DNA from: Candidatus Woesearchaeota archaeon CG10_big_fil_rev_8_21_14_0_10_37_12
GTDB taxonomy: Archaea; Nanobdellota; Nanobdellia; Woesearchaeales; ARS49
NCBI GenBank assembly: GCA_002762795.1
Contig: PCYA01000014.1
Location: forward strand, 5,632-69,631
Length of the DNA: 64,000 bases
Direction of reading: 5' to 3'
Shown here piece by piece: positions 8,137 through 59,523 of this stretch (its first letter is position 1; each line of letters opens with the position of its first letter). The notes under the pieces were generated by a model that made no database searches, was not told where the DNA came from, and saw only the letters and a list, made by a program, of their open reading frames with translations. The position numbers and the translations under genes were made by a program.

Positions 8137-9611
8137 TGGCATACATAACAGCTACTGAAGGTTTTGCGGTGCTTGCGGTTTTTGCAGCAATAATGATTGG
8201 TTTGGTTTATTTTTTGACAAAAAGAAAATTTAAGACAATTGATTTGTTTTTAGTTGCTGACAGGAATGTTTCTTGGTTTCGAGGAGCATTCAGCATTGCA
8301 GTAAGCTGGATTTGGGCTCCTGCATTGTTTGTTGCAAGTATGCAAGCGTACACGACAGGACTAGCAGGCGCATTTTGGTTTATTGTTCCAAATATTGCGT
8401 GTTTTTTCTTATTTGCTCCGCTAGCCATTCGCTTAAGGAGGTTGATGCCAAATGGATATACTTTGCCTGAATTTATTTTGAAAAGGTACAATAATGATAA
8501 ACGAACGCATCTTGCCTTTTTGTTCATTTTTTTCGCATATCAGCTTGGCGCAATTATCATCAATGCATTGGCAGGCGGAACATTATTACATATTTTGACA
8601 GGTATGAATTTTCATATCGCAGTCATTAGTTTGTCCGTAATTGCATTAATTTATTCATTGATTAGCGGCCTTGAGGCATCTATTATTACAGATGTATTAC
8701 AAATGGCTTTTATTTTGATAACGGGTTTTGTTCTTGTTCCTTGGGCCATTTTCACTGCAGGAGGTCTTTCAGCAGTTGCAGGAGGCTTAAGTGGCATTGC
8801 AGGTTCTTCATTTATTTTTGATCCTTGGATTGCTTACTCTTTTGGAATTGCGATGACTTTTGGTTTGTTATCTGGTCCTATTGGTGATCAGATGTTTTTC
8901 CAGCGTGGTTTTGCTGTGAAGAAAAAGAACATCGTTAAAACATTTGTTGTTGGAGGTTTGTTGTTTGGTCTTGTTCCAATTACTTTAAGCTTGCTTGGTT
9001 TTGTTGCGGCAAATCCCCTAATTAACAGCGCATTAAGCATATCTGATCCGCAAATGGTTGCGCCTATTGTTATTGGTGCGTTTTTACCGAAGATCGCGTT
9101 GCTTTTGTTTGTATTCATGGCGTTTGCAGGGTTGTGTTCAACAATGGATTCTGCATATTGTGCAGTGAGTTCTCTTGGAACGATTGATATTTACAAGAAA
9201 TACATAAATGCAAACGCGAGAAGCCAAAAATTGTTGCAAGTTTCTCGTGCTTTTATGCTTGGGATTGCTGTTTTCGGAACTGGAATTGCTTTGCTGCAAC
9301 CTAAATTGTTGTGGGTGTTCCTTATTTATGGTGCATTATCTTCTGCTGGTTTGTTTCCAACAATTTTCAGTTTGTTCTGGAATAAATTGGATGCAAAAGG
9401 TGCGTTTTGGGCCGTTACGTTGTCTCTTGTGCTTGGCTTGCCACTCTCAATTTATGCAAATGTTGTTGAAAACACACATTTGATTGTATTGGCAGCAGTC
9501 TTGAGCGTGCTTATTGGATTAGTAGTTTGTTTGATTGCAGGAATTAGAAATAAAGAAAGATATAAGTTTATTTTTTGTCAAGAACCACCCGTCAATAGAC
9601 GGGTGGCATGA
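8133..9611 (+). CDS. Sodium:solute symporter (SSS) family transporter; last 11 codons come from an inserted palindromic element
   Basis: ~13 TM helices, 'SIAVSWIWA', 'GYTLPEFILKRY', 'GLEASIITDVLQ', 'STMDS'. Confidence 0.85.
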   Translation: MMAYITATEGFAVLAVFAAIMIGLVYFLTKRKFKTIDLFLVADRNVSWFRGAFSIAVSWIWAPALFVASMQAYTTGLAGAFWFIVPNIACFFLFAPLAIRLRRLMPNGYTLPEFILKRYNNDKRTHLAFLFIFFAYQLGAIIINALAGGTLLHILTGMNFHIAVISLSVIALIYSLISGLEASIITDVLQMAFILITGFVLVPWAIFTAGGLSAVAGGLSGIAGSSFIFDPWIAYSFGIAMTFGLLSGPIGDQMFFQRGFAVKKKNIVKTFVVGGLLFGLVPITLSLLGFVAANPLINSALSISDPQMVAPIVIGAFLPKIALLLFVFMAFAGLCSTMDSAYCAVSSLGTIDIYKKYINANARSQKLLQVSRAFMLGIAVFGTGIALLQPKLLWVFLIYGALSSAGLFPTIFSLFWNKLDAKGAFWAVTLSLVLGLPLSIYANVVENTHLIVLAAVLSVLIGLVVCLIAGIRNKERYKFIFCQEPPVNRRVA

Positions 9612-9790
9612 AGCGATAGCTTCATCTTTGCTTGTAATGACCAGTGGTTCCCAAGAAAATCCTCTGGATTTTCTGGGCCAGAAAATGCTTTGCATTTTCT
9701 TGGCTTGAGCATGCTCAGAAATATACCAGATCACTATGGTAATAGGGACGTTGTCCATCAGTCAAATAGACTGATGGTATATTTCTGACA
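9576..9790. mobile_element. Palindromic insertion element type A (215 bp) with a nested 54-bp double hairpin at 9651-9704
   Basis: Matches the 161-bp copies at 52620 and 55734 apart from 4 substitutions and the 54-bp insert; TGTCA...TGACA ends. Confidence 0.9.
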
Positions 9791-9798
9791 TATTAATT

Positions 9799-10014
9799 TC
9801 ACATCCAATGATCTTTGTGTGCTTGTTTCCATAAGAGAACTGCGAGTGTTCCTGTAATAATAATTGCGATCCAGCTTAATAGTGCTGGTGCTTGCCATGT
9901 TCCAATTACTAATGGCCAGCCGTATGCGATGCGCAGTGCATGTACAAATGTGACTATTGCAAAGATTGTTGCTGCTATCAATAAAATTGTTTGGTTAATA
10001 TCATGTCTGTGCAT
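9799..10014 (-). CDS. Small 2-TM membrane protein
   Basis: 71 aa, 'HALRIAYGWPLVIGTWQAP' between two hydrophobic helices. Confidence 0.7.
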   Translation of the reverse strand: MHRHDINQTILLIAATIFAIVTFVHALRIAYGWPLVIGTWQAPALLSWIAIIITGTLAVLLWKQAHKDHWM

Positions 10015-10080
10015 ATTATTTTTTAAAGAATTGTCTTATTTAATGATTTGGTACGATTTAAGAGTTATTACAAAAAGTGT

Positions 10081-10221
10081 TTAGCGAATGAAAAAATATT
10101 AGTTACGCCTCATATTGCGTTTGCAACAGAGCAAGCCAGAAAAAATGCTGCTGAAACTGTTGTGCAGAATGTTGAATCATTCCTTGAAGGAAATCCACAG
10201 AATGTAGTAGTGAATAAATAG
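10081..10221 (+). pseudogene. C-terminal remnant of a D-2-hydroxyacid dehydrogenase
   Basis: Hand translation LANEKILVTPHIAFATEQARKNAAETVVQNVESFLEGNPQNVV; the 'TPHIA' catalytic motif is present but the N-terminal domains are absent. Confidence 0.7.
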
Positions 10222-10375
10222 AAATGACGCGAGGAAGATAATGGAAGAAAACAGTGTTTTCGTGGAATAAATTGAAACTGATAAATTATTAGAAGATGAA
10301 CTTTTGGTTTGAATTCTATTCTTTAATTGCCGCGTTAAGTTTTGGGTCAGTTTTGCGGCAATTAATGTTCGGAAA

Positions 10376-10472
10376 TGTCAGAAATTCACAAAAGTTATTA
10401 TTCTTTGTGTGAATTTCTGAGCATGCTCAAGAACTGCAAAAAAAGATATGTTTTTCTTGGCAGTTCTTAACA
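10376..10472. mobile_element. Palindromic element type B (97 bp), preceded by a hairpin at 10323-10365
   Basis: TGTCAGAAATTCAC...GTGAATTTCTGA GCATGC TCAAGAACTGC...GCAGTTCTTAACA. Confidence 0.85.
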
Positions 10473-10579
10473 AATTAACTATTTGTCCCATTACTTAATT
10501 TTCCCGTTATTTGCAAAAGAACCACTCAATAGTGGCAAAAAAAGAAAGATTTTTAAAGACTTTTGTAGGTTAAAGAAGC

Positions 10580-10852
10580 ATGACTTTTGATCTCATTAGT
10601 GTAATGGATGCTTCTGCTTCAATAGTTGATTTGGAGAGTAAGCTTAGAGGAGAGAAACAAGTTTTTAGGAGAAGAAAGCAGTTTCTAAAATGGCTTGAGA
10701 ACGAGTGGAAGAAAATAAAAAAACCAGTTCTTGAGGAAATTGCCAATACTGTTCTTGATTCTAAACCAGTACTTCCAACAGTAGTTGTTGATTTGCCTGA
10801 TGCACGCGCTATAGATTACACGGACTTATACACGGTTGGGAATGGCCAGTAG
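10580..10852 (+). CDS. Hypothetical protein
   Basis: 90-aa ATG ORF downstream of a TTTTTAAA TATA-like box. Confidence 0.5.
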   Translation: MTFDLISVMDASASIVDLESKLRGEKQVFRRRKQFLKWLENEWKKIKKPVLEEIANTVLDSKPVLPTVVVDLPDARAIDYTDLYTVGNGQ

Positions 10853-11001
10853 CTTTAAAACAGAAGGTAAAAACATTTCTGAAACATCAGGTAGACGGAA
10901 GAGGTTCTTCAAAGTCAGCCTGGTATTGTGAAGAAGGGTTTAAAAGTAATTTTGGAATAAAATGGATAACTGAATTAGAAGACCTTACAAACACTTCAAA
11001 G

Positions 11002-11496
11002 TTGGAGTCCTCTGGAAATGAGAATCCTCTTGATTTAATAGGCGATGCAAGAACAAGCCTTGTTGGTTTTGGATGCTACATTTTACTCAAATCAGAAGTT
11101 CTTAGAGGGAATGAGTCTTCAGATTTTGCTAGATTGCTTAGCAATGCACTTAGAGATCCTAGGTATCAAGATTTGGCAGTAAGGTACTCACATGAGAGTA
11201 GTCTTCCTGAGCCGTTTGGCTTAGAATTGGATTATTTGAATGATCGTTCATCTTTATTGAGTAAATTTTTATTTCATGGAGTTGCTACTGCTGCTGAAAG
11301 GTCATTGTGGACTGCAAATAAACTATTGGAAAGAGGAAAATCAGCTGTAGGCACAAGACACACAAGTTCAGCAAGAGTCAGATTGGAAATAGATTATTTG
11401 TGCGGTGCAAGTCACGTTCCTCAAATTGCTTACTTTTTAGAGTACCCTGATTATTCTTTTGATCATTTAGATGCATATCTCGAAGAGAGAAAATAA
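11002..11496 (+). CDS. Hypothetical protein, start uncertain
   Basis: 164-aa ORF with TTG start; an upstream ATG at 10962 is one base out of frame. Confidence 0.5.
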   Translation: MESSGNENPLDLIGDARTSLVGFGCYILLKSEVLRGNESSDFARLLSNALRDPRYQDLAVRYSHESSLPEPFGLELDYLNDRSSLLSKFLFHGVATAAERSLWTANKLLERGKSAVGTRHTSSARVRLEIDYLCGASHVPQIAYFLEYPDYSFDHLDAYLEERK

Positions 11497-11898: not shown

Positions 11899-11932
11899 AA
11901 AACCTCGATTGTGTATCTATTACTTCAAACCA

Positions 11933-13239: not shown

Positions 13240-13300
13240 TACAAAAGTCAAGGTAAGAAGGGGAAACAAGAATTTGAAAATGCAAATGGAGGAAAGAAAA

Positions 13301-16705: not shown

Positions 16706-17443
16706 GTGGAAGTTGTTCTCTATATGGCAATGTCTGTTAATGGAATGATTGCTGATGAGAGCTGCAATGAAGATTTTCTTTCTGATGTTAACTGGAAAAC
16801 GCTGATAGATCTTTCAGAAAAATATGGAGGGTTTATTATTGGCAGAAAAACGTATGACGCTGTCAAGAACCACCGGTGATCGCTCCTTCGTCGCTCAACA
16901 CCAGTGGCATGACTGTTCAGAAAATTATAAGAAAAATATGACCAGTGGTTCCCAAGAAAATCCAGAGGATTTTCTGGGCCAGAAAATGCTTTGCATTTTC
17001 TTGGCTTGATCATGCTCGGAATACCGCTCGCTTCAGTAAACCACTCGTGATAAACACGAGTGGCATTCCGACATGTAAAAAAATGGGGAACTCCGAGCTT
17101 TGAGGATGTTCCTGGAATTAAAATTGTTGTTTCAAAAAATAAAAATCTAAATTTGCCTGAGAGTTACATAGTTGCAACAAGCCCTGATGATGCGCTGGTA
17201 AAAGCAGAAAGTGCAGGTTTGAAAAGTGTTCTGCTTACAGGCGGTTCAATGTTAAACAGTGAGTTTATGAAGAAAAATCTGATTGATGAGATTGCTCTTA
17301 ATATTGAGCCTGTTTTAATTGGAAAAGGTGTGCCTTTATTTGGAGAAAGTTCTTTTGAAAAAAAACTCAAGTTAATTGAAGTTAAAAAGATAGAAAAAGA
17401 TATTTTGCAATTAAAGTATAAAGTAAGAAAGAAATATGATTAA
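16706..17443 (+). pseudogene. Dihydrofolate reductase/RibD C-terminal family gene interrupted by a 213-bp palindromic element
   Basis: 5' half MEVVLYMAMSVNGMIA...IIGRKTYDA joins 3' half VKKWG...TGGSMLNSEFMKKNLIDEIALNIEPVLIGKGVPLF when 16861-17073 is removed, giving 174 aa. Confidence 0.9.
16861..17073. mobile_element. Palindromic element type C (213 bp) with a nested 54-bp double hairpin at 16952-17005
   Basis: TGTCAAGAACCAC...GTGGTTC[54]TTGA TCATGC TCGGAAT...ATTCCGACA. Confidence 0.9.
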
Positions 17444-17500: not shown

Positions 17501-17601
17501 CGCCGCCGCTGGGATTTGAACCCAGATATCGCTGGCTGCGAATACGGTGATCTGACCGCAAACGCTTTCAGACCGTTGTCATACCTTTAGACTACGGCGG
17601 C
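17501..17601 (-). tRNA. Intron-containing tRNA; canonical splicing gives anticodon GAA (Phe), but it has a long variable arm and G73
   Basis: GCCGCCG/CGGCGGC acceptor, GTC/GAC D stem, ACGGT/ACCGT anticodon stem, CTGGG-TTCAAAT-CCCAG T arm. 16-nt intron at 17550-17565 with a CTGA/TCAG helix and ATC bulge. Confidence 0.8.
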
Positions 17602-21039: not shown

Positions 21040-21990
21040 TTGTCCTATAAAATGACGACAAGTCTTCTTGGTATTGCACCTGCGCTTGATGACGCAATAC
21101 AAGAAGTAGCATATAACGGAGAGAGATATTCTGATTTTCATCCAGCTAATGCAGGTGATATAAGCCAAGTATTTGATGCACAGTTAAGTAGAGAGTTAGT
21201 TGATCGTTTTACTACTACAATGTCTGATTGGTTTGATATTACTCGTCTGCAAGATCTTGCAAGCATTCGTTGTGACGGAAGAGCAGGTTATCGAACAGAG
21301 GGCATAGAAAATCCTGGTTTTTATGAATTATTAGTTCCAATTACTGGGCGGGTTATGTTAATTACGCGTACTGGTTCTGATATTGCTTCAATAAAAAGTG
21401 TTGTAGACTGCGGACAAGATGGTAAGTTGTTTAATCTTGTGCAAGTTGATGACACTGGAAAACGTATTAGGATAATTTATGGTAATAAAGAATATGGTTC
21501 TATTCCTTCTATTGAAACGCATATTCATATTGCTGCTAATGCCATGCATATGGCTGAGGGTTGTGATACTCCTGCAACAGTCCATGCGCATCCTCCTTAT
21601 TTGGTTGCACTTGGAAGACACCCAAAAGTCGCAGGAGACTTTGAGCGGTTTAATGCTGTTGTTTATACTGCAGTTGAAGGATTAAATAGAAATCATAAAA
21701 AATTGATGGGTGTTGTTCCGTATCATCAATCTGGCTCTGCTGATTTGGTAGATAGCAGTTTAGATCCGTTAAAAAAACACGGTTTTGTGTTGTGGATGCA
21801 TCATGGTGCAACTGTTCGACAAATCAATATTCGTCAAGGGTATGTTATGCTTGGTTATGCCGAGCATTGTGCAAGAATGGGTCTTGATTCAGTGCGTGAA
21901 GGTGCGTTAAGAATGCCTGATAAAGAGATTGTTCCGTTCTTAGAAGAAAAAGGATTAAAAGCTGCATATGATGTTGTTTTTGAAACGTAG
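21040..21990 (+). CDS. Class II aldolase/adducin-like protein (rhamnulose-1-P aldolase-like); stop codon supplied by an inserted element
   Basis: 'PSIETHIH', 'VHAHP', 'VVPYHQSGS', 'LWMHHG'. Confidence 0.7.
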   Translation: MSYKMTTSLLGIAPALDDAIQEVAYNGERYSDFHPANAGDISQVFDAQLSRELVDRFTTTMSDWFDITRLQDLASIRCDGRAGYRTEGIENPGFYELLVPITGRVMLITRTGSDIASIKSVVDCGQDGKLFNLVQVDDTGKRIRIIYGNKEYGSIPSIETHIHIAANAMHMAEGCDTPATVHAHPPYLVALGRHPKVAGDFERFNAVVYTAVEGLNRNHKKLMGVVPYHQSGSADLVDSSLDPLKKHGFVLWMHHGATVRQINIRQGYVMLGYAEHCARMGLDSVREGALRMPDKEIVPFLEEKGLKAAYDVVFET

Positions 21991-22162
21991 AAATTCCATC
22001 AGTGTGCTCACTGGTGGTGAAGCAAAGCGTGTATGTGCTTATTGATTACAGGTGGAATTTCTAGGTGATCAAGAACCACTGGTCATATTTTTCTTATGAC
22101 TTTCTGAATAGTCATGCCATTGGTGATCGCACTGCGGTGCTCAACACCAGTGGTTCTTGACA
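21986..22162. mobile_element. Palindromic element type D (177 bp): B-like arm joined to a C-like arm
   Basis: CGTAGAAATTCCA...TGGAATTTCTA GGTGA TCAAGAACCACTGG...CCAGTGGTTCTTGACA. Confidence 0.85.
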
Positions 22163-25306: not shown

Positions 25307-25443
25307 TCTTGTTGAGTTTGCGATGGGTTGATTGATAATCATTCAATTTTAAGTTTTCTTTTAGGCAACTTTGAATTAATCAGCTTTTTGGTGAATGGCG
25401 TGAACGCCCCATAATTCTTGTCGTCGATATTCAAAGTTGGCTT

Positions 25444-25536
25444 AGGGAACGCTCGAAAATTGTGATTTTCGGCGCACCAAAAAGCTTGGCTTTTTTAGTG
25501 CTTTGACTCAATTAAGATAGTTTTTCAAAGTTCCCT
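25444..25536. repeat. Hairpin with a 51-bp double hairpin inserted in its left arm (25451-25501)
   Basis: AGGGAAC|TTTGA pairs with TCAAA-GTTCCCT once the insert is skipped. Confidence 0.65.
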
Positions 25537-25640
25537 TTACAAAAAAACTGAATCACTCCCCACTCGACAACTGCTCGTAATCTTTTTAAACAGCTCATAA
25601 AACCAATGATACATAAGTAAGAATACAATTTAATTACAAT

Positions 25641-29901: not shown

Positions 29902-30001
29902 CTATGCTAACTTTTGTTCAGTTCACGTATGATCTTTTTTTTCTAGTGTATAGTAAATTGCCTTAAATATCGAACCTTTTAGCAATTTACTATATTTGAA
30001 A

Positions 30002-30097
30002 CGTCAGAAATTCACAAAATTTAATATGGTTTGTATGAATTTCTGAGCGTGCTCAAGAACTGTCACAATTATTGATTATTTTTGACAGTTCTTGACA
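30002..30097. mobile_element. Palindromic element type B (96 bp), preceded by a hairpin at 29949-29994
   Basis: CGTCAGAAATTCA...TGAATTTCTGA GCGTGC TCAAGAACTGTCA...TGACAGTTCTTGACA. Confidence 0.85.
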
Positions 30098-30104
30098 TTC
30101 GCAA

Positions 30105-31100
30105 TTATTTGTTCGATTTCTTGCGAATTTCATTATAGCCTTTTGATGGTGGATTTTTTGATTCAGGCTTTTCATACCCTCTAACTTCAAGCTCTGGTTG
30201 ATATTCTCCCTGTCTTGTTTCTACGAGAGCTTGTACCCCAACTGCACGTTTTGCGAGTGTTCTCCACAAGTTGTAAAATGCAAGGCTTGTTGGTTGTTCT
30301 ATTGATTCTCGCGTGTGCAATGCAAATTTTCTGCGCTGTCTTAATCGTTTTGGTAAGTTTAAGAATGGATGATCTGGATGTGCGTCTATCATTACTTGCC
30401 ATAATTCATATTTTGCGAATTCTGCTGGTAAGCGAACCAATAAATAATTGTTTGCCATGTCTAAGAATCTGTCTTGATGCATTAATTTTCCGTCGCCATC
30501 AGTCACACGTTTTACAGGTCCTGTATTGCCTGCAAGATATTCGTGTGCTGCTTCGCACAAACCATCTAATCTGTCTGCAAGTTTTGCCACTTGCCCTTCT
30601 GCTGTTCTGAGATTCTGACTAACACGTAATGCTCTTTCGTAACGTACGCCATTAACATATAGACCGTCAAACATGACAATGAGTTCTTCTACTGCGCGTG
30701 TTTCCAAGTCTTTTATTCTTTGATGATCAGCCTTTGTGCCTCTTGTTTTTGCTCCTGCATCAATATCTCCTATTTTAATTTCAATGTCGTCATGAACTTT
30801 GGCTGCAGCGCGTGCAAGTTGACGATCATACTGTGTTGAGTCAGGAACTAAATTTCCTAATTCATCTGTTATCTCTGCAACGCGTAAAGAATGATCCAAA
30901 TTGGTGGTTCTGTACAACATAGGTTTAGAGCCGTGCCATCTGTCTATTTGTGCAAGTCCTTGTTCCCTGCTTCTGATATCTCGGTGATTTATTCTTGGAA
31001 CGTGATCTACTTCACCATTGTCAAATTTAACTACAAGAGGTCTAAATGGAAGCAGTAGCTGGTCAGGATCATCTGCTGATTTTCTTCCCCTTTTAGCCAT
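30105..31100 (-). CDS. HD-domain phosphohydrolase (YfbR-like)
   Basis: 'IDRW', 'HSLRV', 'VHDDIE...GDI', 'KLADRLD'. Confidence 0.75.
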   Translation of the reverse strand: MAKRGRKSADDPDQLLLPFRPLVVKFDNGEVDHVPRINHRDIRSREQGLAQIDRWHGSKPMLYRTTNLDHSLRVAEITDELGNLVPDSTQYDRQLARAAAKVHDDIEIKIGDIDAGAKTRGTKADHQRIKDLETRAVEELIVMFDGLYVNGVRYERALRVSQNLRTAEGQVAKLADRLDGLCEAAHEYLAGNTGPVKRVTDGDGKLMHQDRFLDMANNYLLVRLPAEFAKYELWQVMIDAHPDHPFLNLPKRLRQRRKFALHTRESIEQPTSLAFYNLWRTLAKRAVGVQALVETRQGEYQPELEVRGYEKPESKNPPSKGYNEIRKKSNK

Positions 31101-31164: not shown

Positions 31165-31815
31165 ATGAAACTGGCAAGTATAAAAGCAATAGGTTTTGAT
31201 TTAGATTATACACTATACCCGCAAAGCAAAGACATTCAAGAAAAAGTTGCTGATGAAGTAGCAAAACACTTAGCAGGTGCTCAAAATCTACCGTTCGATG
31301 AAGCAAGAAAGAAATATGAGGAAACATATGCAAAGTTAAAAAGCGGCAAAGGAACACTACTCGCATTAGGCGTTGAAAATGCCCGAGAAGTCATGCAGAA
31401 TTGTTTAGAATCTGCTGAACGTGTAGATTTCATAGAACAAAATGCAGAACTTGTGAAACTCATTGAACAGTTAAAAGAAAAAGTCGGCTGCGTTTTCCTC
31501 ATAACTGGCAGTAGAAAGCATTTAGCAATTCCCATTCTTGAAAAGATCGGTTTGACAGAAAGCCATTTTGATCATGCAATTTATGGTCCTGACACTGAAG
31601 GTGATCATTTGATTAAGTTTAATGGAACAGCATTTGCAGAAATCGAAAGACTTACAGGTTTAAAACCAGAAGAACTTTGTTATGTGGGTGATAATCCAAA
31701 AATGGACATACATCCAGCGCATGCAAGAGGTTGGAAAACTATTTTAGTAAATGATAAAGATGATAAAGCAACAGTGTGTATTCAAGATATTTTGCATATT
31801 AAAGAACTAATTTAA
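31165..31815 (+). CDS. HAD-family hydrolase
   Basis: 'FDLDYTLY', 'YVGDNPKMDI'. Confidence 0.85.
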   Translation: MKLASIKAIGFDLDYTLYPQSKDIQEKVADEVAKHLAGAQNLPFDEARKKYEETYAKLKSGKGTLLALGVENAREVMQNCLESAERVDFIEQNAELVKLIEQLKEKVGCVFLITGSRKHLAIPILEKIGLTESHFDHAIYGPDTEGDHLIKFNGTAFAEIERLTGLKPEELCYVGDNPKMDIHPAHARGWKTILVNDKDDKATVCIQDILHIKELI

Positions 31816-32094
31816 AGAGAGGATAGAAGCTCCTCTGGCTTTACCAGTTTCGCAATGTCCTCTCCTTATCGCGAGTTTGCTCGCGTATTAGGAAATCTGA
31901 AATTTTGTTGTTTCCCAGATTTCCTATAAACCTCACCTGTGAATCTAAAAATTGAAAGCCAGACTGACGGTTTGCGCTTGCAAGTTTACTATAACTAGGG
32001 TGTTATAAAGAGGGGCAACCATTAGCCTAATGCGCGCAAGGAGCGCGACCCCTCTGTACTAATAATCCGACAAAGAAGATTTTTCGCCAAAAGT

Positions 32095-33085: not shown

Positions 33086-33121
33086 TTAAGCAAGCATTAA
33101 TTTAGCAAGTTTATGAAGTTT

Positions 33122-33323
33122 ATTATTGCAAAGTTCGCAGGACTTTGCACTGGGGTTTAAAACCACGCCCAGCTGGAAGTCTCCAACTTCCAGCTTGCTC
33201 AGAAAATTACACACCTATACGATTTTTGTAATTTTCTGACATTTAGGGCGAACTTTGCAAGTAGAAAAACGCACGATAAAATACCCCGACCTTCAGGTCG
33301 GGGAATAGTGCGTTTTTCTTTAT
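33122..33323. mobile_element. Palindromic element type F with a nested 71-bp element at 33171-33241
   Basis: Same frame as 49467-49598; extra AGCTGGAAG...CTTCCAGCT-TGC-TCAGAAAATTACA...TGTAATTTTCTGACA. Confidence 0.85.
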
Positions 33324-33390
33324 CTTCAAGTAGTTTTAAAAAATAAGAAAATTGAGAAAAATAAACTTATTCATGATAAACCAGCTTATA

Positions 33391-48534: not shown

Positions 48535-49467
48535 ATGAAAAGAAAAGTCATCCAAATAGCAGACAGCACTCAGCTAATCTCATTACCAAGAAAATGGGCA
48601 TTAAAAAATAACGTTAAGAAAGGGGAAGAGCTCGATGTTATAGATAAAGCAAATACTTTAACTATTTCCTGTGATACAAAACAAAAAGCTGAAAGAGCAA
48701 TAATTCGTTTTAGTGATTATGGTGCATTGAGTGCAAGAGCTATTTTTGGACTATATAGGTTTGGTGTTGATGAAATGAAAATTTTAGTTGATTCTCCAGA
48801 TGAATTTCAAGAACTGCTCAATATTAGCCATGGAGATGCTGTTGGCTTTGAAATGGTTGAACAAGGAACTAATTATTGTTTGCTAAAAAACATTGCAGGG
48901 GATACACAAGGATTTGAAACAATGCTGCGACGAACTTTTTTGTTGCTTCAAAATATGGCTGATGAAGGAGTAAAAGCACTTAAAAAAGGAGATCAAAGCG
49001 CGCTCAAAAATTTAATAATGTTAGAAAAAAGCAATAATCGCTTTACAACTGTTTGCAGAAGGCATGTGAACAAGCATGAACATGATAAGTTCAAATCAGG
49101 CCCACTTTATGCAATCATAGAAGAATTGGAGAATATTGCTGACGAGTATAAATATTTGTTTGAGCAGTTAAAAAATGTGGAAAAAGGAAAATTAAACGTA
49201 ACAAAAGAACATATTGAGCTATACGACAAGCTTGCCCAAATGATTCGTTTATTCCATGAAGCTTTTTACAAAGAAGATCATAAAAAACTTGCAACTGCTG
49301 CAGAACTACGAAAAGAGATTGTTAATGCATGTTACAAGCGTGCAGAAAAAGACAAAGGACATATTTATTTTGCACTTAATCATCACGCATTAATATTAGC
49401 TCAAAGAGTGTTTAATATGGTTGGTCCTTATCTTGCAATGAAACCTGCGAAAGTAGAAGAAATATGA
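48535..49467 (+). CDS. AbrB-PhoU-type archaeal regulator
   Basis: 'KRKVIQI...LISLPRKW...KGEEL', 'LENIAD'. Confidence 0.85.
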   Translation: MKRKVIQIADSTQLISLPRKWALKNNVKKGEELDVIDKANTLTISCDTKQKAERAIIRFSDYGALSARAIFGLYRFGVDEMKILVDSPDEFQELLNISHGDAVGFEMVEQGTNYCLLKNIAGDTQGFETMLRRTFLLLQNMADEGVKALKKGDQSALKNLIMLEKSNNRFTTVCRRHVNKHEHDKFKSGPLYAIIEELENIADEYKYLFEQLKNVEKGKLNVTKEHIELYDKLAQMIRLFHEAFYKEDHKKLATAAELRKEIVNACYKRAEKDKGHIYFALNHHALILAQRVFNMVGPYLAMKPAKVEEI

Positions 49468-49598
49468 TTATTGCAAAGTTCGCAAGAACTTTGTAGAGGG
49501 GTTTAATACCCTGCCCTTTAGGGCGAACTTTGCAAGTAGAAAAACGCACGATAAAATACCCCGACCTTCAGGTCGGGGAATAGTGCGTTTTTCTTTAT
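49467..49598. mobile_element. Palindromic element type F, uninterrupted
   Basis: TTGCAAAGTTCGC...GCGAACTTTGCAA GT AGAAAAACGCAC...CCCCGACCTTCAGGTCGGGG...GTGCGTTTTTCT, with TTAT at both borders. Confidence 0.85.
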
Positions 49599-50284
49599 TT
49601 TTTTCCTAAAACAATTTCTTCAAGTTGATAAATGTCTTTCAAATTGTGGTGTCTATCTGGATTTTCGGGATTGTTCCATTCACTATTTACTGCAGCGGTA
49701 CACATGCCTAAATTTGCTGCAGGTTGTAAATCGCGGCGTACTGAATTGCCCACTGAAATAACTTCATGAGACTTGTATGGTTTTTGGTTAAGAAAATATT
49801 TGAAAGGTTGTTCATCAGGTTTCCAGGGCCCTCCATTAGATGATGTGTACCAAGGTAATTCAAACATATCTGCAACGTCAAGAGCAGTTAATAACAACTT
49901 AGCATTATCCTCACGATTAGATGTCAACAAATACAATAACATTCCGGCACTATTAAGCTCCTTGAACATATTGCGTAATCGCTTGTCAGGTTTTAACCTT
50001 TGTGCAACTTGAGGATAATTTGGAATGCGCCAGGCTTCTTCAGGATCTATGCCTAACGAAATAAGAGTTCTTATAGTGTCACCTACTTTTTCATATTCTG
50101 TTTTGTAAACTTTATATGCATCTTCAGGAGTTAGAGTTTTTTTTCGGCGTGAGTATTTAGAAATGAGAGTTTCCAATACTGCACTTTTTATTCGTATTGT
50201 TCTTCTTGTTTTTTGCGCAGGTGTAAGTTGATAAAGTGTTCCGTCTAAATCTATTATTCCTGCTTTAATTTTGGGTTTAGTCAC
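49595..50284 (-). CDS. HAD-family hydrolase
   Basis: 'IDLDGTLY', 'LTSN', 'KPD', 'VGNSVRRDL'. Confidence 0.8.
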   Translation of the reverse strand: MTKPKIKAGIIDLDGTLYQLTPAQKTRRTIRIKSAVLETLISKYSRRKKTLTPEDAYKVYKTEYEKVGDTIRTLISLGIDPEEAWRIPNYPQVAQRLKPDKRLRNMFKELNSAGMLLYLLTSNREDNAKLLLTALDVADMFELPWYTSSNGGPWKPDEQPFKYFLNQKPYKSHEVISVGNSVRRDLQPAANLGMCTAAVNSEWNNPENPDRHHNLKDIYQLEEIVLGKK

Positions 50285-52619: not shown

Positions 52620-52780
52620 TGTCAAGAACCACCCGTCAATAGACGGGTGGCATGAAGCGATAGCTTCATCTTCGCTTGTAATGACCAGTGGTTCTTGAGC
52701 ATGCTCAGAAATATACCAGATCACTATGGTAATAAGGACTCTGTCCATCAGTCAAATAGACTGATGGTATATTTCTGACA
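52620..52780. mobile_element. Palindromic element type A (161 bp), intergenic
   Basis: Identical by eye to 55734-55894. Confidence 0.92.
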
Positions 52781-52919
52781 TATTAAATATTATGAACAGT
52801 GAGAAGACTATAGAAAAGTTTGACTCGATTTTGATGGTTTTTCAAGCTTTTCTAAGAAGTGTTTAAATAACGCAGAAGGTAAAGGTTATTCAAAGCTCTC
52901 TATAAAAAGGATAATTTAA

Positions 52920-53324
52920 ATGACAAAACATCAAGGAAAAAAACATGGATCTAAGGCAGATATAGGACATACTGCTGCATATATTGTTGAAATACGAGTA
53001 GTTGGTGAATTGAGGAGAGCTTATGATATTGTAACTAACAGTTTTGCGGGAAGCTTAACAGCTGCTGAACAGTTTTATTTAGGAACACCCGCATATGGCA
53101 AATCTGATGATGGTAGAGCAGTTTTAGGGTTAGCAGCTGCTGTAAGAGATATTGCAAACAGATGTGGGTTGCAATACGCTTCAGCATCTCAAGGAAAGTG
53201 TCCTTTAAGTGATCTAGTGAGCGATGTTGGTCCTGAATTAGAACGTAGAGAAGAAAGATTGCGAGCCTATTTTGAAAGCACGTTGGCTCCTAAAGCGTAT
53301 GCTGCTAAGAAAAATGTATCTTAA
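52920..53324 (+). CDS. Hypothetical protein
   Basis: 134-aa ATG ORF. Confidence 0.5.
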   Translation: MTKHQGKKHGSKADIGHTAAYIVEIRVVGELRRAYDIVTNSFAGSLTAAEQFYLGTPAYGKSDDGRAVLGLAAAVRDIANRCGLQYASASQGKCPLSDLVSDVGPELERREERLRAYFESTLAPKAYAAKKNVS

Positions 53325-53375
53325 GTAACATTTAAATATCATATTCTATTCTGAAGTTAATTAAAGAGGTGTTTT

Positions 53376-55496
53376 ATGGTTCGTCATGTTCATACTAGTA
53401 TTTTTTTGATTGTTGCCATTGTTGGTGTTGCTGCTATTTTGTTTTCATCTGCGTTGTACCCTTCTCCTGTTTTGTTTGCAGTATCTTATTTGCCTGGTGA
53501 GGATGAGGTTGGTAGTGATACTGTTATTGTTAGTTTGAATGTGAATGATTTTATTAGTAGTGAACTTGAAGCTGTAGGAAGCGGACAATTCTCAGGGTTA
53601 AACAGCGGAACAATACAAACAAGAGATTCGAGAACTGAGTATACTCAATCATTACGTTTTGCACAATCAGGCGTGTTTAGTGGTGGTCAGGTTCTTTTTG
53701 GCCGTGATGAATCAAATAGAGTGAGTGATTTTTTACAGTTTGATGGTTCTGGATATGTTTTTGAGTACCGAGTTGATTTTGGTTCTGGGCTGAGAAGTAA
53801 AGTTGAAGTTGCGGGCCGTTTAGAGGATATGATTGGTGAAGAGTGGACTATGGGTGGTGCGCGATTTGCATTAGTTGATGCGGTTGCTGACACAACAGTA
53901 AATAGAATGCGCTTGAGATTTTTTGGCGGTTTTGGAAGTGTTGATTTTGAAGATAATGATTATACAGATGATTTGTTTCAACAAAGCGGTGTTCGTGTTA
54001 ATGGTCAGACTGTTGATGCTGATGTAAAAATAAGGGCAACAGAGACGTCAAATGATAAATTAACTATTTTTTCTATTCAGTATAGGCTTTCTGCAAATGC
54101 AAAGCAAGGCGGCGATGTGCAGGTTTTGCCATTGCATTGCGTAAGGGAGTTCTTGCAGCATCCTCTTGGAATGTTGTTCCCTGATTTTGATATTTGTTAC
54201 AAAGGCGCATCTGGTACTGCTCAGGCATCTTCTGGTATTTCTGGTAATTTGGTGCATGTGAAAGCGCGTGGTGATGATGAGTATGTAATGCGCGCGCAGA
54301 ATTTGTATGGGCAAACGTATGAAATTCCTCTTGCGCAGCTTCCGGGAATGTACGGTAATAGAGGAAGGAATTTTGTGTTTGTTGAGGCTGCAAATCTTGG
54401 TGCTCCAAATATTAATGTAAATGATTATTTGCTTGTAAACAGTAGGGACTGGCTTGGTGTCTCTCATGTGTTGCGTCTTGATCAAATAACAACTAATCAA
54501 GTGTATTTTGAAGATCTTGGAGGAAATCAAAGACAAGCAGTTTTTGATTCTGCAACTGGTGAAGGCGATTTGATTATGAGTGAAGGCACATATCATTTTA
54601 GAGTAACAGGTAATCAGCTTGCAATAGATCAGAATAATGATAATACTGTGAATGGGGGCGAAGCAGCATTCCATTTACCAGGTGGAACGTACATTGATTT
54701 TGGTCCCGGGTTTACTGTTAGTATTATAACTCCTCAGCGTTTGTTGGAAGAACAAGTAACTGACGAAGTAACCCAATTTGATATTACATTTGGAAGCAAC
54801 ATTGATTTGGATGTTTCGTCTCCGCAAGGAACTGTTTTTGAATTACATGGTTCAGGTAGTGGTGTTCGTGAAGGTATGACTTTGTATGGTATTCATTTCC
54901 GTTGGGATCAAGAATCTGATTCTGATGATTTGAGAATTACTGTTCCTGGTGCTCGTGCGCGTCAAGTGCGTGGTGGTGCAACTGCGCAAGTGTATCTTAC
55001 TTTAGAGCGTGATCGTTGGATGACTCCTGCACAACAACAATCTCCTGCTGCAGTTTGTGGCAATAGATTAAAGGAAAATGGAGAATATTGCGATCCTCCT
55101 GGAAGTTTGTGTGCGCAGAATGAGCAGGGAGGTGTTTGTGCAGATGATTGTAAATCGTGTGCGATTACTCCTCCTGCTGTTTGTGGTAACAGGTTGTTAG
55201 AACGTGGTGAGCAATGTGAGTCACGAGGTGATTGTGCTCAAACAGAAGATTGTCAAAACTGTAATTGTGTTCCTCTACCTAAAGCAGTATGCGGAAATAA
55301 CTTGCTTGATTTAGGAGAACAATGCGAAAAAGATGTTGATTGCTTGGGTGGTTTGGTTTGCAGAGGCTGCATGTGTGTTCCACAACCTAGATTGGACGTA
55401 CAAACACCTACTGCTCCTGTTGCAGCACAACCTGTACAACAGCCAAATGTCATTGCAAAATTCTTTTTGTGGATTGCAGGATTGTTCGGTGCCTGA
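53376..55496 (+). CDS. Surface protein: S-layer-like beta-rich body plus C-terminal Cys-rich repeats
   Basis: N-terminal TM, three 'AVCGN.L.E.GE.C' repeats, amphipathic C-terminal tail. Confidence 0.65.
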   Translation: MVRHVHTSIFLIVAIVGVAAILFSSALYPSPVLFAVSYLPGEDEVGSDTVIVSLNVNDFISSELEAVGSGQFSGLNSGTIQTRDSRTEYTQSLRFAQSGVFSGGQVLFGRDESNRVSDFLQFDGSGYVFEYRVDFGSGLRSKVEVAGRLEDMIGEEWTMGGARFALVDAVADTTVNRMRLRFFGGFGSVDFEDNDYTDDLFQQSGVRVNGQTVDADVKIRATETSNDKLTIFSIQYRLSANAKQGGDVQVLPLHCVREFLQHPLGMLFPDFDICYKGASGTAQASSGISGNLVHVKARGDDEYVMRAQNLYGQTYEIPLAQLPGMYGNRGRNFVFVEAANLGAPNINVNDYLLVNSRDWLGVSHVLRLDQITTNQVYFEDLGGNQRQAVFDSATGEGDLIMSEGTYHFRVTGNQLAIDQNNDNTVNGGEAAFHLPGGTYIDFGPGFTVSIITPQRLLEEQVTDEVTQFDITFGSNIDLDVSSPQGTVFELHGSGSGVREGMTLYGIHFRWDQESDSDDLRITVPGARARQVRGGATAQVYLTLERDRWMTPAQQQSPAAVCGNRLKENGEYCDPPGSLCAQNEQGGVCADDCKSCAITPPAVCGNRLLERGEQCESRGDCAQTEDCQNCNCVPLPKAVCGNNLLDLGEQCEKDVDCLGGLVCRGCMCVPQPRLDVQTPTAPVAAQPVQQPNVIAKFFLWIAGLFGA

Positions 55497-55584
55497 TTTT
55501 ATTCTTTTTTGGGTAAGCCATCAATTTCACAGAATAATGGACTTTTTCAATTAATTATTTAAGCAATTATAATTTACACCGGTT

Positions 55585-56465
55585 ATGCCTAAAATTGCTG
55601 TTGCCCAGATTAAAATTTTTGATGAATTGAGCAAAAATGTAAATAAGGTTATTGAGTTTATAGATAGGGCTTCCATTAAGAAAGCAGATTTGGTTTGTTT
55701 TCCTGAATCTTGTTTAGGTAACGACTTTTTGAATGTCAAGAACCACCCGTCAATAGACGGGTGGCATGAAGCGATAGCTTCATCTTCGCTTGTAATGACC
55801 AGTGGTTCTTGAGCATGCTCAGAAATATACCAGATCACTATGGTAATAAGGACTCTGTCCATCAGTCAAATAGACTGATGGTATATTTCTGACATATTAA
55901 TGGTGCTGAGATAAGAAGTATTAGGGAGAAATGTAAAGAGAGTTCTATTTACTGTATTTTTGGTGCTCATGCGAAAGATAAGGGAAAATTTTTCAATTGT
56001 GCTTTTTTAATTGATAGGAAAGGGAGGATTCAACATATTTATAAGAAAGTGAATTTATTTTCTGGTCTTGAGTTGGAGCAGACTTGTAATGGAGAATGGA
56101 ATGGGGTAATAAAAACAGATTTTGGAGATATTGGGATAATTATTTGTTGGGATTTTGCGTTTCCAGAACATATTAAGAAACTTTCGAAAAATGGTGCACA
56201 GATTATTTTCTGTCCTTCTTATTTGTTAAAAAGTGCAAGAATAAGTAAAGATGTTTTTAGAAGTTATCCTCTTACCAGAGCTTTTGAGAATTTGTCATAT
56301 TTTGTAACTTGTGATGCTTTTGGTAGCGATGTGATTTCTGAAAGTTATATTTGTAGTCCATTAAAGGTTTTGAATAAGATCTTACATCGAGAGGGTATTA
56401 TTTTTGCGGATTTGGATTTGAAGAAAATTATTCAGTTAAGAAAAAAATACAATTGTTTGAGCTAG
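55585..56465 (+). pseudogene. Carbon-nitrogen hydrolase (nitrilase family) interrupted by a 161-bp element
   Basis: Removing 55734-55894 gives ...FPESCLGNDFLN-INGAE...YKKVNLF...IICWD, 239 aa with an intact E-K-C triad. Confidence 0.92.
55734..55894. mobile_element. Palindromic element type A (161 bp), inside the nitrilase gene
   Basis: TGTCAAGAACCAC...GTGGTTCTTGA GCATGC TCAGAAATATACCA...TGGTATATTTCTGACA. Confidence 0.92.
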
Positions 56466-56490
56466 GCTTGTAGTTCTATTCATTTCAAGT

Positions 56491-57807
56491 TTAAACAATA
56501 TTCCCATACCCTATTAATCTCCATCTCTGTCCTACATTTCTGCCAATGGTTACTTGTGATCCTTTTTCTGCGCAGACTGGTCTTTTGAGAGAACAAGTTA
56601 TAATATTTTTGCTAAGGTCTTTTACTATTCCTACTGTGGCTGCTGCGTTAACGTTTAACATGAGCATTTCTGATTGTTTGATTGGTTCGACTACAAGTTT
56701 GTCTTTTGCTCCTACTACTCTTTCAAGGAGTTTTGTTTGTAATTTTAATTCTTGCCAGACTGGCGGTGAATTTCCTGGTGTTGTTACTGTGCTTCCTACT
56801 AGTTTGTCGCTTTTGACAACGCTTGGGTCTAATTGTGTGAGTAATGCGAATGTTCCTCCAGGGGTTGCTTCTTGTACTTCTGTGTTTCCTGCCATGATTT
56901 TGGTTATTTTTGTTTTGAATGGTTTCCATACTTGTTGATTTCTTTCTTGAACAGAATATCCTGGCAGGATTTCTATTTCTTGTCCTGTTGTGAGCTTGCC
57001 TTGTTTGAGTGATCCGCCGATCACTCCTCCGATTATTTTTTGTGGTGTTGTGCCTGGTTTGTTGACGTCGAAGCTTCTTGCTATGTACATGATTGGTTTT
57101 GCTGCCAGATTTCTTTCTGGTGTTGGAACAAGTTCTTCTATTGTTTTGATAAGCATGTCTAAATTAACTCCGTGTTTTGCGCTCATTGGGAGTATTGGTG
57201 CTTCTGTGTATGGTGTGTTTTTGAGAAAGTTTTTGATTTGTTGGTAGTTTTTCTGTGCTTCTGTTTCATCCACAAGATCGATTTTGTTTTGTATAATTAT
57301 TAGTTTTGTTATGCCTATGATTTCCAGTGCTTGAAGGTGTTCTCTTGTTTGTGGTTGAGGGCAGGTTTCGTTTGCAGATATCATTAATATTGCTCCATCC
57401 ATGATGTTTGCGCCGCAGAGCATTGTTGCCATTAAGCTTTCGTGTCCTGGTGCGTCTACAAGCGATATTTTTCTGAGGAGTGTTGTTTCTTTGCCGCAAA
57501 TCTCACAAATAGGTTTTACTGTGTATGTATTCTCTTCGCAAGAGCATTTGTAGAATGAGACATCTGCGTATCCTAATCTGATAGTAATTCCACGCTTGAT
57601 TTCTTCAGAATGCGTATCTGCCCATTTGCCAGATAGTGTTTGTACGAGTGTTGTTTTTCCGTGGTCTACGTGTCCAATAATTCCTATGTTTATTTCTGGT
57701 TGTGCTGGTTGTTTTAGAGTTGTTTCTGCTACTGCTTTTTTGGTGGTTTTTCTCTTTGATGGTGTTTTTGCTTCTGTTTTTGTAGATGTTTTCTTCTTTG
57801 CAGCCAT
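56491..57807 (-). CDS. eif2g: Translation initiation factor aIF-2 gamma
   Basis: 'QPEINIGIIGHVDHGKTT', 'GITIRLGY', 'DAPGHE', 'NKID', 'WRLIGYG'. Confidence 0.97.
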   Translation of the reverse strand: MAAKKKTSTKTEAKTPSKRKTTKKAVAETTLKQPAQPEINIGIIGHVDHGKTTLVQTLSGKWADTHSEEIKRGITIRLGYADVSFYKCSCEENTYTVKPICEICGKETTLLRKISLVDAPGHESLMATMLCGANIMDGAILMISANETCPQPQTREHLQALEIIGITKLIIIQNKIDLVDETEAQKNYQQIKNFLKNTPYTEAPILPMSAKHGVNLDMLIKTIEELVPTPERNLAAKPIMYIARSFDVNKPGTTPQKIIGGVIGGSLKQGKLTTGQEIEILPGYSVQERNQQVWKPFKTKITKIMAGNTEVQEATPGGTFALLTQLDPSVVKSDKLVGSTVTTPGNSPPVWQELKLQTKLLERVVGAKDKLVVEPIKQSEMLMLNVNAAATVGIVKDLSKNIITCSLKRPVCAEKGSQVTIGRNVGQRWRLIGYGNIV

Positions 57808-57860
57808 AATAAATAAAGAAAAAGTACCATTTATAAAACTTTGGGGATAAAATAGCTTTA

Positions 57861-59168
57861 TCAGTGAATATATTGCGTTATTTCTTTTATTGCATTTTTA
57901 AGGGTTTTTTGGTCTTTTGCCTCAACAACTAATCGTACTAATGGTTGCGTGTTGCTGATTCTAAAATTGAACCAAAATTTACCTGTATTAACAGATACTC
58001 CATCCACTGATTTGATAATAAATTTAGCATATCTTTTCTTTAATTTTTTTCTGACTGTTTCTCTGTCTTTAACTTTAAAATTAAGTTCTTCTGATGTTTG
58101 GTATTTGTCAAAGGGCTTGATAAGTTCGCTGATTGTTTTGTCTGTTTGAGAAAGAAGTGTAAGTATCGTGAGTGCTGCTAAGTCTCCTGAGTCTCCGTAT
58201 TTGAATTTTTTGAAGTAGAAGTGTCCTGAGAGTTCTGCGCCAAGAACTGCATCGTGCTTAATCATTTCTCGTTGTACTTCTGTGTGACCTATTGGTACAG
58301 CGATTGCTTTGCCTTCCCATTTTGGAATGAATTCTTCTGCAACTCTTCCTGAGTTAACTGTGTACAATATCTTTTGTCCTTTTTTTATGATGTGTTGTGC
58401 GAATAGAAGAAGTGTTTTTACAGAGGGTATTCTTTTTCCGTTTTCATCTATGAAAAATGCTCTGTCACAATCACCATCGTAGCAAATGCCAAGATCATAT
58501 TTGCCTTGTTTAATTTGTTTTTGTAGTTCTTTGGTGTTTTTTGGTTCTGCAGGGTTTGGGGTGTGGTTTGGAAATGTTCCGTCAAGTTTTCCGTAAAGCA
58601 AATTGTATTTAATTGGTAACCCTGCAAGCAATTTTGGAACAACATATCCTGCCATGCCGTTTCCGCAATCAATAAGAACGCAAAGTTTTTTGTATTTCCC
58701 GCTTATAGTTTTTTTGGTAAAGTCAATATATTCTGAAAGAATATTTTTTGACGTTGCTCTTCCTAGTTTTTTGGGCTCTGGAAAATGGCAACTGTTAACA
58801 AGTTTTTCTATTTTGTTTAGTCCGTTTTTATAACCTATTTCAATAAATCCTTTCCCAACAATTTTGATGCCGTTGTATTTTGCAGGATTGTGCGATGCAG
58901 TAATCATAATTGCGTGATGTTTAAAAGAAGCATAATACAACATAGGAGTATTACATAATCCAATGTTAATTACATTGCATCCTTGGTCTGTTATTCCATA
59001 AATAAGTGCTTTTTGTAATGCGAGCGAGCTTGTTCTGCAGTCTCTGCCAACAACAATGGTTTTGGCTTTGAAGAATTGTACAATTGCTCTGCCAACATTG
59101 TATGCAAGTTTTTCATTAACTTCTTCAGGATATATTCCTCTGATATCAAATGATCTGAATGCAGACAT
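57861..59168 (-). CDS. Phosphomannomutase/phosphoglucomutase
   Basis: 'FDIRG', 'TASHNP', 'DGDCDR', 'ELSGH'. Confidence 0.93.
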   Translation of the reverse strand: MSAFRSFDIRGIYPEEVNEKLAYNVGRAIVQFFKAKTIVVGRDCRTSSLALQKALIYGITDQGCNVINIGLCNTPMLYYASFKHHAIMITASHNPAKYNGIKIVGKGFIEIGYKNGLNKIEKLVNSCHFPEPKKLGRATSKNILSEYIDFTKKTISGKYKKLCVLIDCGNGMAGYVVPKLLAGLPIKYNLLYGKLDGTFPNHTPNPAEPKNTKELQKQIKQGKYDLGICYDGDCDRAFFIDENGKRIPSVKTLLLFAQHIIKKGQKILYTVNSGRVAEEFIPKWEGKAIAVPIGHTEVQREMIKHDAVLGAELSGHFYFKKFKYGDSGDLAALTILTLLSQTDKTISELIKPFDKYQTSEELNFKVKDRETVRKKLKKRYAKFIIKSVDGVSVNTGKFWFNFRISNTQPLVRLVVEAKDQKTLKNAIKEITQYIH

Positions 59169-59243
59169 GACTCACCTCTTAAATGAGATATATTGAAGAT
59201 TGTATAAAAACGTTTGCTCTGATGACAGAAAGCATTTTTGACT

Positions 59244-59523
59244 TGTCGGAATGCCACTCACTCCAGTAAACCACTCGTGTTTATCACGAGTGGCATTCTG
59301 AGCATGATCAAGCCAAGAAAATGCAAAGCATTTTTTGGGAACCACTGGTCATATTTTTCTTATGATTTTCTGAATCAGTCATGTCACTGGTGTTGAGCAC
59401 CGCAGTGCTGTCAGAAATCAACAATAGTAATTATATTTTGTGTCGATTTCTGAGCACCCAGAAAACACGCACAATAATAATTGTTTTTGCGTGTTTCCTA
59501 TGGATCACCAGTGGTTCTTGACA
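59244..59523. mobile_element. Palindromic element type C in reverse orientation (280 bp), with nested inserts at 59313-59339 and 59409-59502
   Basis: Reverse-complement scaffold of 16861-17073. Confidence 0.88.

Follow-up and report, generated by a model that had tools for sequence, protein, structure and literature searches.

Among the closest described systems are the CGTC-tagged repetitive extragenic palindromes (REPs), which are described as changing from CGTC to TGTC at one end, as having stems of 8–9 bp and as lying mostly in head-to-head dimers that are often heterodimers (PMC3733652). The same description gives them an unpaired tag, loops of 4–5 nt and a CCA tail (PMC3733652); they are apparently without a dedicated transposase and are reported from no more than five phyla, all bacterial (Di Nocera et al., 2013; PMC3733652). 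The enzyme behind such transposase-less palindromic repeats has been an open question for the bacterial CGTC-type REPs since 2013. [quoted passage not shown] Here we describe a family of short two-hairpin elements found in 64,000 nt of DNA (hereafter, the window) from Candidatus Woesearchaeota archaeon CG10_big_fil_rev_8_21_14_0_10_37_12 (contig PCYA01000014.1, positions 5,632 to 69,631 of the forward strand), and we conclude that it is a real, recently active, non-autonomous family and a new archaeal variety among REP/MITE-like repeats. The genomes of DPANN archaea are tiny and are believed to harbour few mobile elements. Our literature search found no description of the two-hairpin family, and the supplements of the MITE census, which lie beyond the text searched, may list these sequences.

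The elements follow one grammar, T-GTCAAGAAY (alpha hairpin) RTTCTTGA, a linker (G/T)C(A/G)(C/T)GC, and TCRGAAAT (beta hairpin) ATTTCYGAC-A, with the same polarity across copies: an alpha stem foot TCAAGAAY/RTTCTTGA, the 6-nt linker and a beta foot TCRGAAAT/ATTTCYGA, within a T-G...C-A frame. The linker is usually the palindromic GCATGC, with TCATGC, GCGTGC and GCACGC as variants. Each window element begins with YGTC, ends with GACA and contains two stem-loops, with the exception of a degenerate AACA end in the copy at 10376–10472; the linkers in the window are GCATGC, GCGTGC or TCATGC, and GGTGA in the copy at 21986–22162. A T precedes GTCAAGAA in all 41 of the 41 left ends. The interiors were labelled as alpha-type units A, B and F and beta-type units C, D, E and G, which were found in the composites A-D, A-C, B-C, B-D, A-G and F-E. 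The core or minimal element is about 52 nt long, some loci of relatives measuring only 52–56 nt with 4-nt loops, and minimal units (L201) consist of 9-bp stems with 4-nt loops. The junction TTGAKCRYGCTCR occurs seven times in the window against 0.02 expected from 100 dinucleotide shuffles, none of which reached seven. Folding of four elements as single strands of DNA, one of them taken from a relative and the other three from the window, gave two hairpins in every case (z = -7.95, -7.41, -6.50 and -5.03), and folding as good was seen in 0 of 200 shuffles. No open reading frame (ORF) lies inside the elements, in line with the gene-less hairpin-pair family proposed by an earlier sequence-only reading of this DNA; each element was read at the position given there, and the nested units that it mentioned are real (9650–9703, 16952–17005, ~59313–59339 and 59409–59502).

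The genome containing the window (G000) is a draft of 1,351,557 bp in 19 contigs, with a marker-gene completeness of 99%. Its DnaK has its nearest counterparts in Woesearchaeota metagenome-assembled genomes (MAGs; 75% and 74% identity), which agrees with the DPANN-like archaeal host supposed from the letters. No closer relative was found, the best DnaK reaching 75% among genome contigs and the best DnaJ 53% among metagenome contigs, too distant to supply empty sites for G000. A BLAST search of G000 with the seven elements gave 80 merged loci totalling 9,184 nt, or about 0.7% of the genome, and full-length unit copies number 17 for A, 20 for B, 17 for C, 9 for D, 6 for E and 10 for F. All short dispersed hairpin repeats of several families, including ones other than that described here, occupy 2.8% of G000 (238 short-repeat regions, 38 kb, in a self-comparison). 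Only 9.3% of element bases fall within ORFs (91% are intergenic), as compared with 85.9% coding sequence genome-wide, and 60 of the 80 loci overlap no ORF. Within the intergenic space of G000, no bias was found among convergent, divergent and tandem gene pairs, nor was clustering of the elements (18 gaps below 6 kb, 17.6 expected, P 0.51). Several G000 contigs terminate inside repeats, and independent contigs from two public runs also break inside elements, where the depth is about 8–10 times that of the flanks. Two independent contigs nevertheless span the left junctions of the copies at 16861 and 21986 with no differences; these two element-flank junctions are thus also present in independent assemblies, which speaks against an assembly artefact.

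Comparison of closely related genomes gave evidence of mobility. Within one genus, the junction counts of eight congeners are 13, 10, 2, 0, 0, 0, 0 and 0. Four loci that are filled in the genome G373 are empty in its congeners (two or three congeners compared for each), and at two of the four the flanking alignments meet within 2–3 nt in the empty congeners. At these exact sites the boundaries are T/GTC...GAC/A(T), where the slash marks the element edge, and any duplication is confined to one or two ambiguous bases. At least two insertion loci are shared by G373 and G385. The empty orthologous sites that the sequence-only reading had called for in relatives were therefore found, and insertion without target duplication, which it had claimed, is seen alike at the congener sites, in the nested insertions (0 target duplication) and in a split gene of the window. 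No target duplication of 3 nt or more appeared in a scan, by a narrow pattern, of only 10 elements.

In the split gene, a 213-nt element of the form B(H,H)-C, H being a nested mini-hairpin, interrupts a RibD_C-family gene at 16861–17073 (+), with a 54-nt nested mini-hairpin pair at 16952–17005. The N-terminal part of the gene (16706–16860, +) contributes 51 residues that align to residues 8–58 of an uninterrupted homologue in G003, and the C-terminal part (17074–17443, +; Pfam RibD_C positions 103–196/197, E 3.5e-15) contributes 122 residues that align to residues 60–180. The codon GC/T at the split is preserved and supplies residue 59, so that no host base was lost or gained; the two halves are otherwise intact, and the arrangement allows 0 or 1 nt of target duplication. 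The insertion was thus an exact one, and probably a recent one. The copy carries stop codons and is therefore not translated through. Elsewhere, copies supplant the C-terminus or the stop codon of adjacent genes (9576 and 21986). The copies at 52620 and 55734 are 100% identical, and other copies are 91–99% identical. The identical copies, the cleanly split gene and the range of 0–13 copies among congeners bear out the recent activity that had been proposed.

Target choice was examined at the beta end, where the flank in G000 reads A (31/35), T (30/35), R, T (30/35), N, A (30/35), A (31/35). The N of this ATRTNAA motif differs among near-identical copies, and the alpha flank in G000 is a weaker mirror image. 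The motif is weak in G373, and the empty sites match it only partly, which we read as a probable preference for an AT-rich motif and not as a fixed target.

Searches beyond G000 showed how widely the family occurs and which of its parts are kept. With element DNA as query, 16 of 41 relatives, each of another genus, gave matches, mostly to the junction. Of 301 genomes sampled from the order, 46 contain the 19-nt junction pattern TTCTTGAKCRYGCTCRGAA (39 of 217 genera; a tally that includes G144, flagged unpublished), and the reversed control gave 0 matches. The number of junctions per genome ranges from 0 to 24, with none in 255 of the 301. In a phylum-level sample, all 14 positives belong to the same order and the pattern is present in 0 of 34 genomes of other orders; as far as sampled, the family is confined to one archaeal order. 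The junction pattern was absent from the collections of viral contigs, phages and plasmids that were searched, and in Rfam the window gave only tRNA at the gathering threshold, four element loci giving no match at E up to 1; a match to an already described family was thus not found in the Rfam, phage, plasmid or viral collections. A set of 25 loci, drawn from about 25 genomes, keeps the ends and the junction and has unrelated interiors, the smallest being 4-nt loops and the largest exceeding 100 nt. Six genomes contain a recognisable D-type unit; in these its outer stem is invariant, and both partners have changed in 4 of its 23 base pairs, each of them in the inner hairpin. Given the fixed ends and junction and the invariant outer stem, the stem feet, the linker and the tips are therefore constrained as sequence, and the remainder only as structure or not at all. 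The stems had been read from the window as changing in compensating pairs, which is not all that they show: covariation is seen in the inner hairpin of the D-type unit, and the basal 8 bp and the linker are conserved in sequence across the order. The description “structure-defined” is likewise only half right, because sequence itself is kept in the TGTC/GACA ends, in the linker and in the 8-bp feet of the stems.

The copies in the window illustrate how interiors may enlarge. Mini-hairpins (CCAAGAAAATNN-loop-NNATTTTCTTGG, about 27 nt) occur singly, paired or in fours, at a single site of the alpha 3' arm, GGTTC/TTGA (the slash marks the insertion point), in units A, B and F, and in beta arms too. 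In the element at 9576–9790 (+), identified by sequence reading and BLAST as unit A, GCATGC and unit D, a 54-nt mini-hairpin pair (9650–9703, +) lies at this site in the 3' arm of unit A; the pair is absent from the copies at 52620 and 55734, and a joint that skips the 54 nt is seen in independent contigs. The left part of the same element provides the last 12 codons and the stop of an SSF symporter ORF (8133–9611). The copy at 21986–22162 (−) joins unit B to the variant beta unit G, and the stop codon of the ORF at 21040–21990 falls in its first bases. Its inner B hairpin is inverted as compared with other copies (seen at 22057–22162), and in unit C inversion is likewise seen as ATAAA or TTTAT. 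Simple hairpins make up the two shortest window copies, both folded: the 96-nt F-E element at 30002–30097 (−) and the element at 10376–10472 (−), with hairpins F' and E and the degenerate alpha end TTAACA. The B-C element at 59244–59523 (−) carries one mini-hairpin of 27 nt (~59313–59339) and, in the inner loop of unit B, a 94-nt two-hairpin composite (59409–59502, +), recognised by comparison with uninterrupted B copies; this insert has no target duplication, and the same insert is found in G000:C19:20368–20600. Entire composites are inserted in inner-hairpin loops of both B and C with no duplicated base, and a minimal element of G098 sits in the loop of another hairpin. The larger copies owe their size to nested hairpin insertion together with loop inversion.

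The remaining two copies are the identical A-D elements of 161 nt at 52620–52780 (+; folded) and 55734–55894 (+). The segment between them (52781–55733) contains a 134-aa ORF and an ORF for a 706-aa protein with a signal or anchor and Cys-rich C-terminal repeats, neither of which belongs to a Pfam family. As direct repeats around this segment, the two copies could be the mark of a duplication or recombination event.

A non-autonomous mobile DNA element, MITE-like or resembling REPs and bacterial interspersed mosaic elements (BIMEs), that is moved by an enzyme in trans is probably the best explanation of what was observed: the anatomy and spread, the insertion polymorphism with its exact boundaries, and the nesting. 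An enzyme of this kind, which we assume, would recognise the TGTC/GACA ends, the linker and the sequence-conserved 8-bp feet of the stems, its substrate probably being DNA that is extruded or exposed in hairpin form, and would cut exactly at T/GTC...GAC/A. The element inserts with 0–1 nt of target duplication at AT-rich intergenic sites like ATRTNAA, and also in the loops and stems of other hairpin repeats. The variable interiors (A–G) would arise by nested insertion of further hairpins, and ectopic conversion between copies and flip-flop inversion of loops would add to their growth, all three being processes at the DNA level. An intermediate in hairpin or single-stranded form is our inference, as is the kind of enzyme.

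Several observations weigh against this reading. Y1_Tnp (PF01797), the TnpB Zn-ribbon (PF07282), IS110, rve, DDE_Tnp_1 and Y2_Tnp have no match in the 99%-complete G000. Five element-rich genomes share only tyrosine recombinases (two each), which are absent from element-rich G373 and G385. A gene-content filter for proteins present in G385 and G000 and not in G382 retained 33, and the 20 of these that were scanned included no plausible nuclease or recombinase. A 167-aa protein with a weak GmrSD_N match (G385:C2:115460–116255 and G000:C16:20079–20825; 61% identical) lies 100–200 nt from an element in both genomes, and was rejected as a candidate since only 3 of its 15 carriers among the 301 genomes have the junction, so that the two do not co-occur. 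Orientation has no relation to local GC skew on the draft contigs of G000 (n = 27, Mann-Whitney P 0.98), which argues against strictly lagging-strand insertion. In addition, the genus in which the empty sites were found is not that of G000 but another in its family, and the evidence from the public runs consists of assembled contigs alone, with neither excision nor new insertion directly seen.

Other lines of the enzyme search gave similar results. In an all-versus-all comparison of 3,249 G000 ORFs no multi-copy gene was found, and no arrangement of left end, cargo and right end occurs in G000 or G385; the latter, in 7 contigs, has 22 alpha and 25 beta hairpins and no autonomous copy. Genes bracketed by elements, inspected by eye alone, include nothing that looks transposase-like. 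The proteins beside the copy at 52620 are one Cys-repeat surface protein and two without a significant Pfam family; a TniQ match in one neighbour (E 0.046) was below the cut-off and was ignored. G000 has a large serine recombinase and Cas1, both absent from the other four element-rich genomes tested. The serine recombinase (542 aa) and a 403-aa tyrosine integrase lie within 3 kb of each other at G000:C19:139500–145700, which may be an integrated element, and Cas1 is located at the end of contig C1. The enzyme is thus not any transposase family tested, and because no candidate was found, mobilisation in trans, as the sequence-only reading had it, stays an assumption. The link to HUH Y1 transposases and to REP-associated tyrosine transposases (RAYTs) that it had drawn was not supported, since Y1_Tnp is absent from G000 and from six element-rich genomes and does not track the elements, and no Y1, TnpB or IS110 gene flanked by elements, as it had suggested seeking, was found in G000.

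The elements might still be ordinary HUH Y1 elements, either palindrome-associated transposable elements (PATEs) of IS200/IS605 or REP/RAYT units, whose transposase lies on a plasmid, a virus or an unassembled repeat or was recently lost, which we consider unlikely. Hairpins at both ends, the lack of duplication, a short motif on one flank and insertion in hairpin loops all suit such elements, and some sequence must be unassembled, because several contig ends lie in repeats. For a set of 256 Nanobdellota proteomes, a 2026 preprint gives RAYT (K07491) as the sole transposase KO with strict matches (10.64898/2026.05.13.725050). Y1_Tnp genes are also present in 12 of the 41 relatives, but they occur in 7 of the 16 element-matching genomes (G000 included) as against about 4.7 by chance, and they are missing from the element-rich G373 (99% complete), G385 (97%), G033, G002, G004 and G005 as from G000. 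Element motifs were not found near four weak Y1 loci in relatives, motif scans found no element at six stronger ones (L090–L095), and the upstream end of an IS605-type locus in G029, the only end read, is unrelated to the element. The orientation unbiased against GC skew and the absence of the junction from viral contigs, phages and plasmids also speak against a Y1 origin. The junction form of arm, 6-bp spacer and arm could instead recall attC- or dif-like sites at which a tyrosine recombinase captures gene cassettes, with the identical copies around the 3-kb two-gene segment at 52781–55733 as a possible instance. The R boxes of attC carry ...AAC/GTT..., as the stem feet do here. This is hardly credible, however: the elements are dispersed and form no arrays, none lies beside a recombinase gene, and Phage_integrase, absent from G373 and G385, is present in the element-free G329 and G382, which largely refutes it.

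If the elements were chiefly functional in cis, whether as 5' leaders, as promoter or ribosome-binding cassettes or as RNA stabilisers or terminators, and were kept by selection, their mobility would be ancient or incidental. The conservation of ends and junction across the order and the covariation in an inner hairpin would agree with this, as would the position of the beta end, which lies 0–2 nt from a start codon in 4 of 12 G385 elements and, by eye, in 7 of 9 G373 elements; at the latter (L225–L233) it often touches a downstream ATG, with GGAG often 9–12 nt upstream of it. In the genus of G373 and G385 the element may indeed serve as, or have replaced, a 5' leader. But only 2 of 35 beta ends in G000 are within 12 nt of an ORF start, gene-pair contexts show no bias, and the junction count varies from 0 to 24 with most genomes of the order having none (255/301). 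Sequence-conserved stems with free loops are the reverse of typical RNA families, no Rfam match appeared at E up to 1, and flip-flopping loops and insertion in a coding gene are unexpected of a selected RNA element, and we regard a primarily cis-acting role as quite improbable. Even less probable is spread and growth with no dedicated enzyme, by replication template-switching at palindromes and ectopic gene conversion. It would account for the loop inversions and for the same nested insert in two B subfamilies, and at the RibD_C site the host right flank TGTAAAAAAA resembles the element left end TGTCAAGAAC, a hint of microhomology; it leaves unexplained how more than 50 unique intergenic sites come to have boundaries that are exact and set by sequence, and how a 19-nt junction has stayed unchanged in 46 genomes of many families. 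Within the preferred explanation, a non-autonomous element moved in trans, the mover could be a so-far unrecognised Woesearchaeales enzyme that reads the 8-bp hairpin foot and the palindromic 6-nt linker and transposes double-hairpin DNA with no target duplication; it might be a nuclease or ligase that has diverged very far, or else a host protein that belongs to none of the known transposase families. We offer this only tentatively; if true, the transposition system would be a new one, and it might also supply the activity that is missing for the orphan CGTC-type repeats in bacteria.

Other features of the window and of G000 were observed beside the elements. A separate hairpin repeat family is present at 33229–33326 and 49504–49601 (within mosaics at 33118–33329 and 49461–49603), with stems GCAAAGTTCGC/GCGAACTTTGC and TAGAAAAACGCAC...GTGCGTTTTTCT around a CCCCGACC/GGTCGGGG hairpin; it has 34 BLAST matches in G000 at 91–100% identity (one weak self-match, 83.7%), and the copy in the mosaic at 33118 contains a nested TCAGAAAAT-type hairpin. 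Other short dispersed repeats with small inverted repeats, likewise outside the two-hairpin family, occupy 25347–25543, 31813–31979, 29949–30001 and 30098–30138 and have up to 30 other copies. A tRNA model match at 17501–17601 (−) spans 101 nt for a 71-position model and is therefore probably an intron-containing tRNA gene. Positions 1–5812 hold an open-ended ORF of more than 1,900 aa with about five tandem repeats of ~555 nt. Local GC skew over 20 kb is strong in G000 (up to about ±0.2) and contig-wide, being negative, for example, in C2, C5 and C14 and positive in C4, C8 and C10, which suggests a marked strand asymmetry.

These repeats are of consequence for their hosts and for those who assemble them: they break assemblies at contig ends, have split one gene and taken the place of the ends of others, and lie right at start codons in a sister genus. 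The 19-nt junction offers a ready marker both for the lineage and for repeat-induced misassembly in Woesearchaeal MAGs. In addition, the unusually clear and conserved grammar, the differences in insertions among congeners and the several near-complete hosts without any of the standard transposase families tested make a clean system for finding the enzyme.

Compared with known systems, the family shares with MITEs that are moved by DDE transposases and have terminal inverted repeats an imperfect inverted repeat (TGTCARGAA), TG...CA tips, small size and intergenic location, but it lacks their target duplication of 2–10 bp, and G000 has no DDE gene. Like the PATEs of IS200/IS605, it has a hairpin at each end, makes no duplication and has, in most G000 copies, a short motif on one flank only; unlike them, it has no full-length insertion sequence with these ends, TnpA and TnpB are absent, and there is no strand bias relative to GC skew. 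Nor does it form arrays like integron attC sites, Phage_integrase being absent from G373 and G385. Rickettsia palindromic elements are similar in that hairpin repeats with no known enzyme land inside genes or each other; the sequences are unrelated as far as seen, and the in-gene copy here carries stop codons. The nested small dispersed repeats of cyanobacteria are also hairpin repeats that lie inside genes or each other, with no known enzyme. The likeness to REPs, BIMEs and REP doublets (REPINs) extends further, to short extragenic palindromes in head-to-head mosaics with defined linkers and set spacing, tens of copies, a conserved tetranucleotide at the hairpin foot, and the lack of both an ORF and a target duplication. 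The REP/RAYT systems differ in that GTAG stands at the 5' foot of a palindrome of 20–40 bp, whereas the foot here is YGTC and partly paired, the host is an archaeon, nested inserts exceeding 100 nt are accommodated by the units, and no RAYT/Y1 gene is present in G000, G373 or G385. From the CGTC-tagged REPs, compared by description only, the archaeal family differs in its fixed 6-nt linker, in loops that can expand, in the lack of a CCA tail and in the pairing of the tag's TC with GA. A terminal CGTC/TGTC tag, an 8–9 bp stem, head-to-head dimers and the lack of a dedicated transposase were nonetheless all found in it, and it is these CGTC/TGTC-tagged REPs that its anatomy appears to resemble most.

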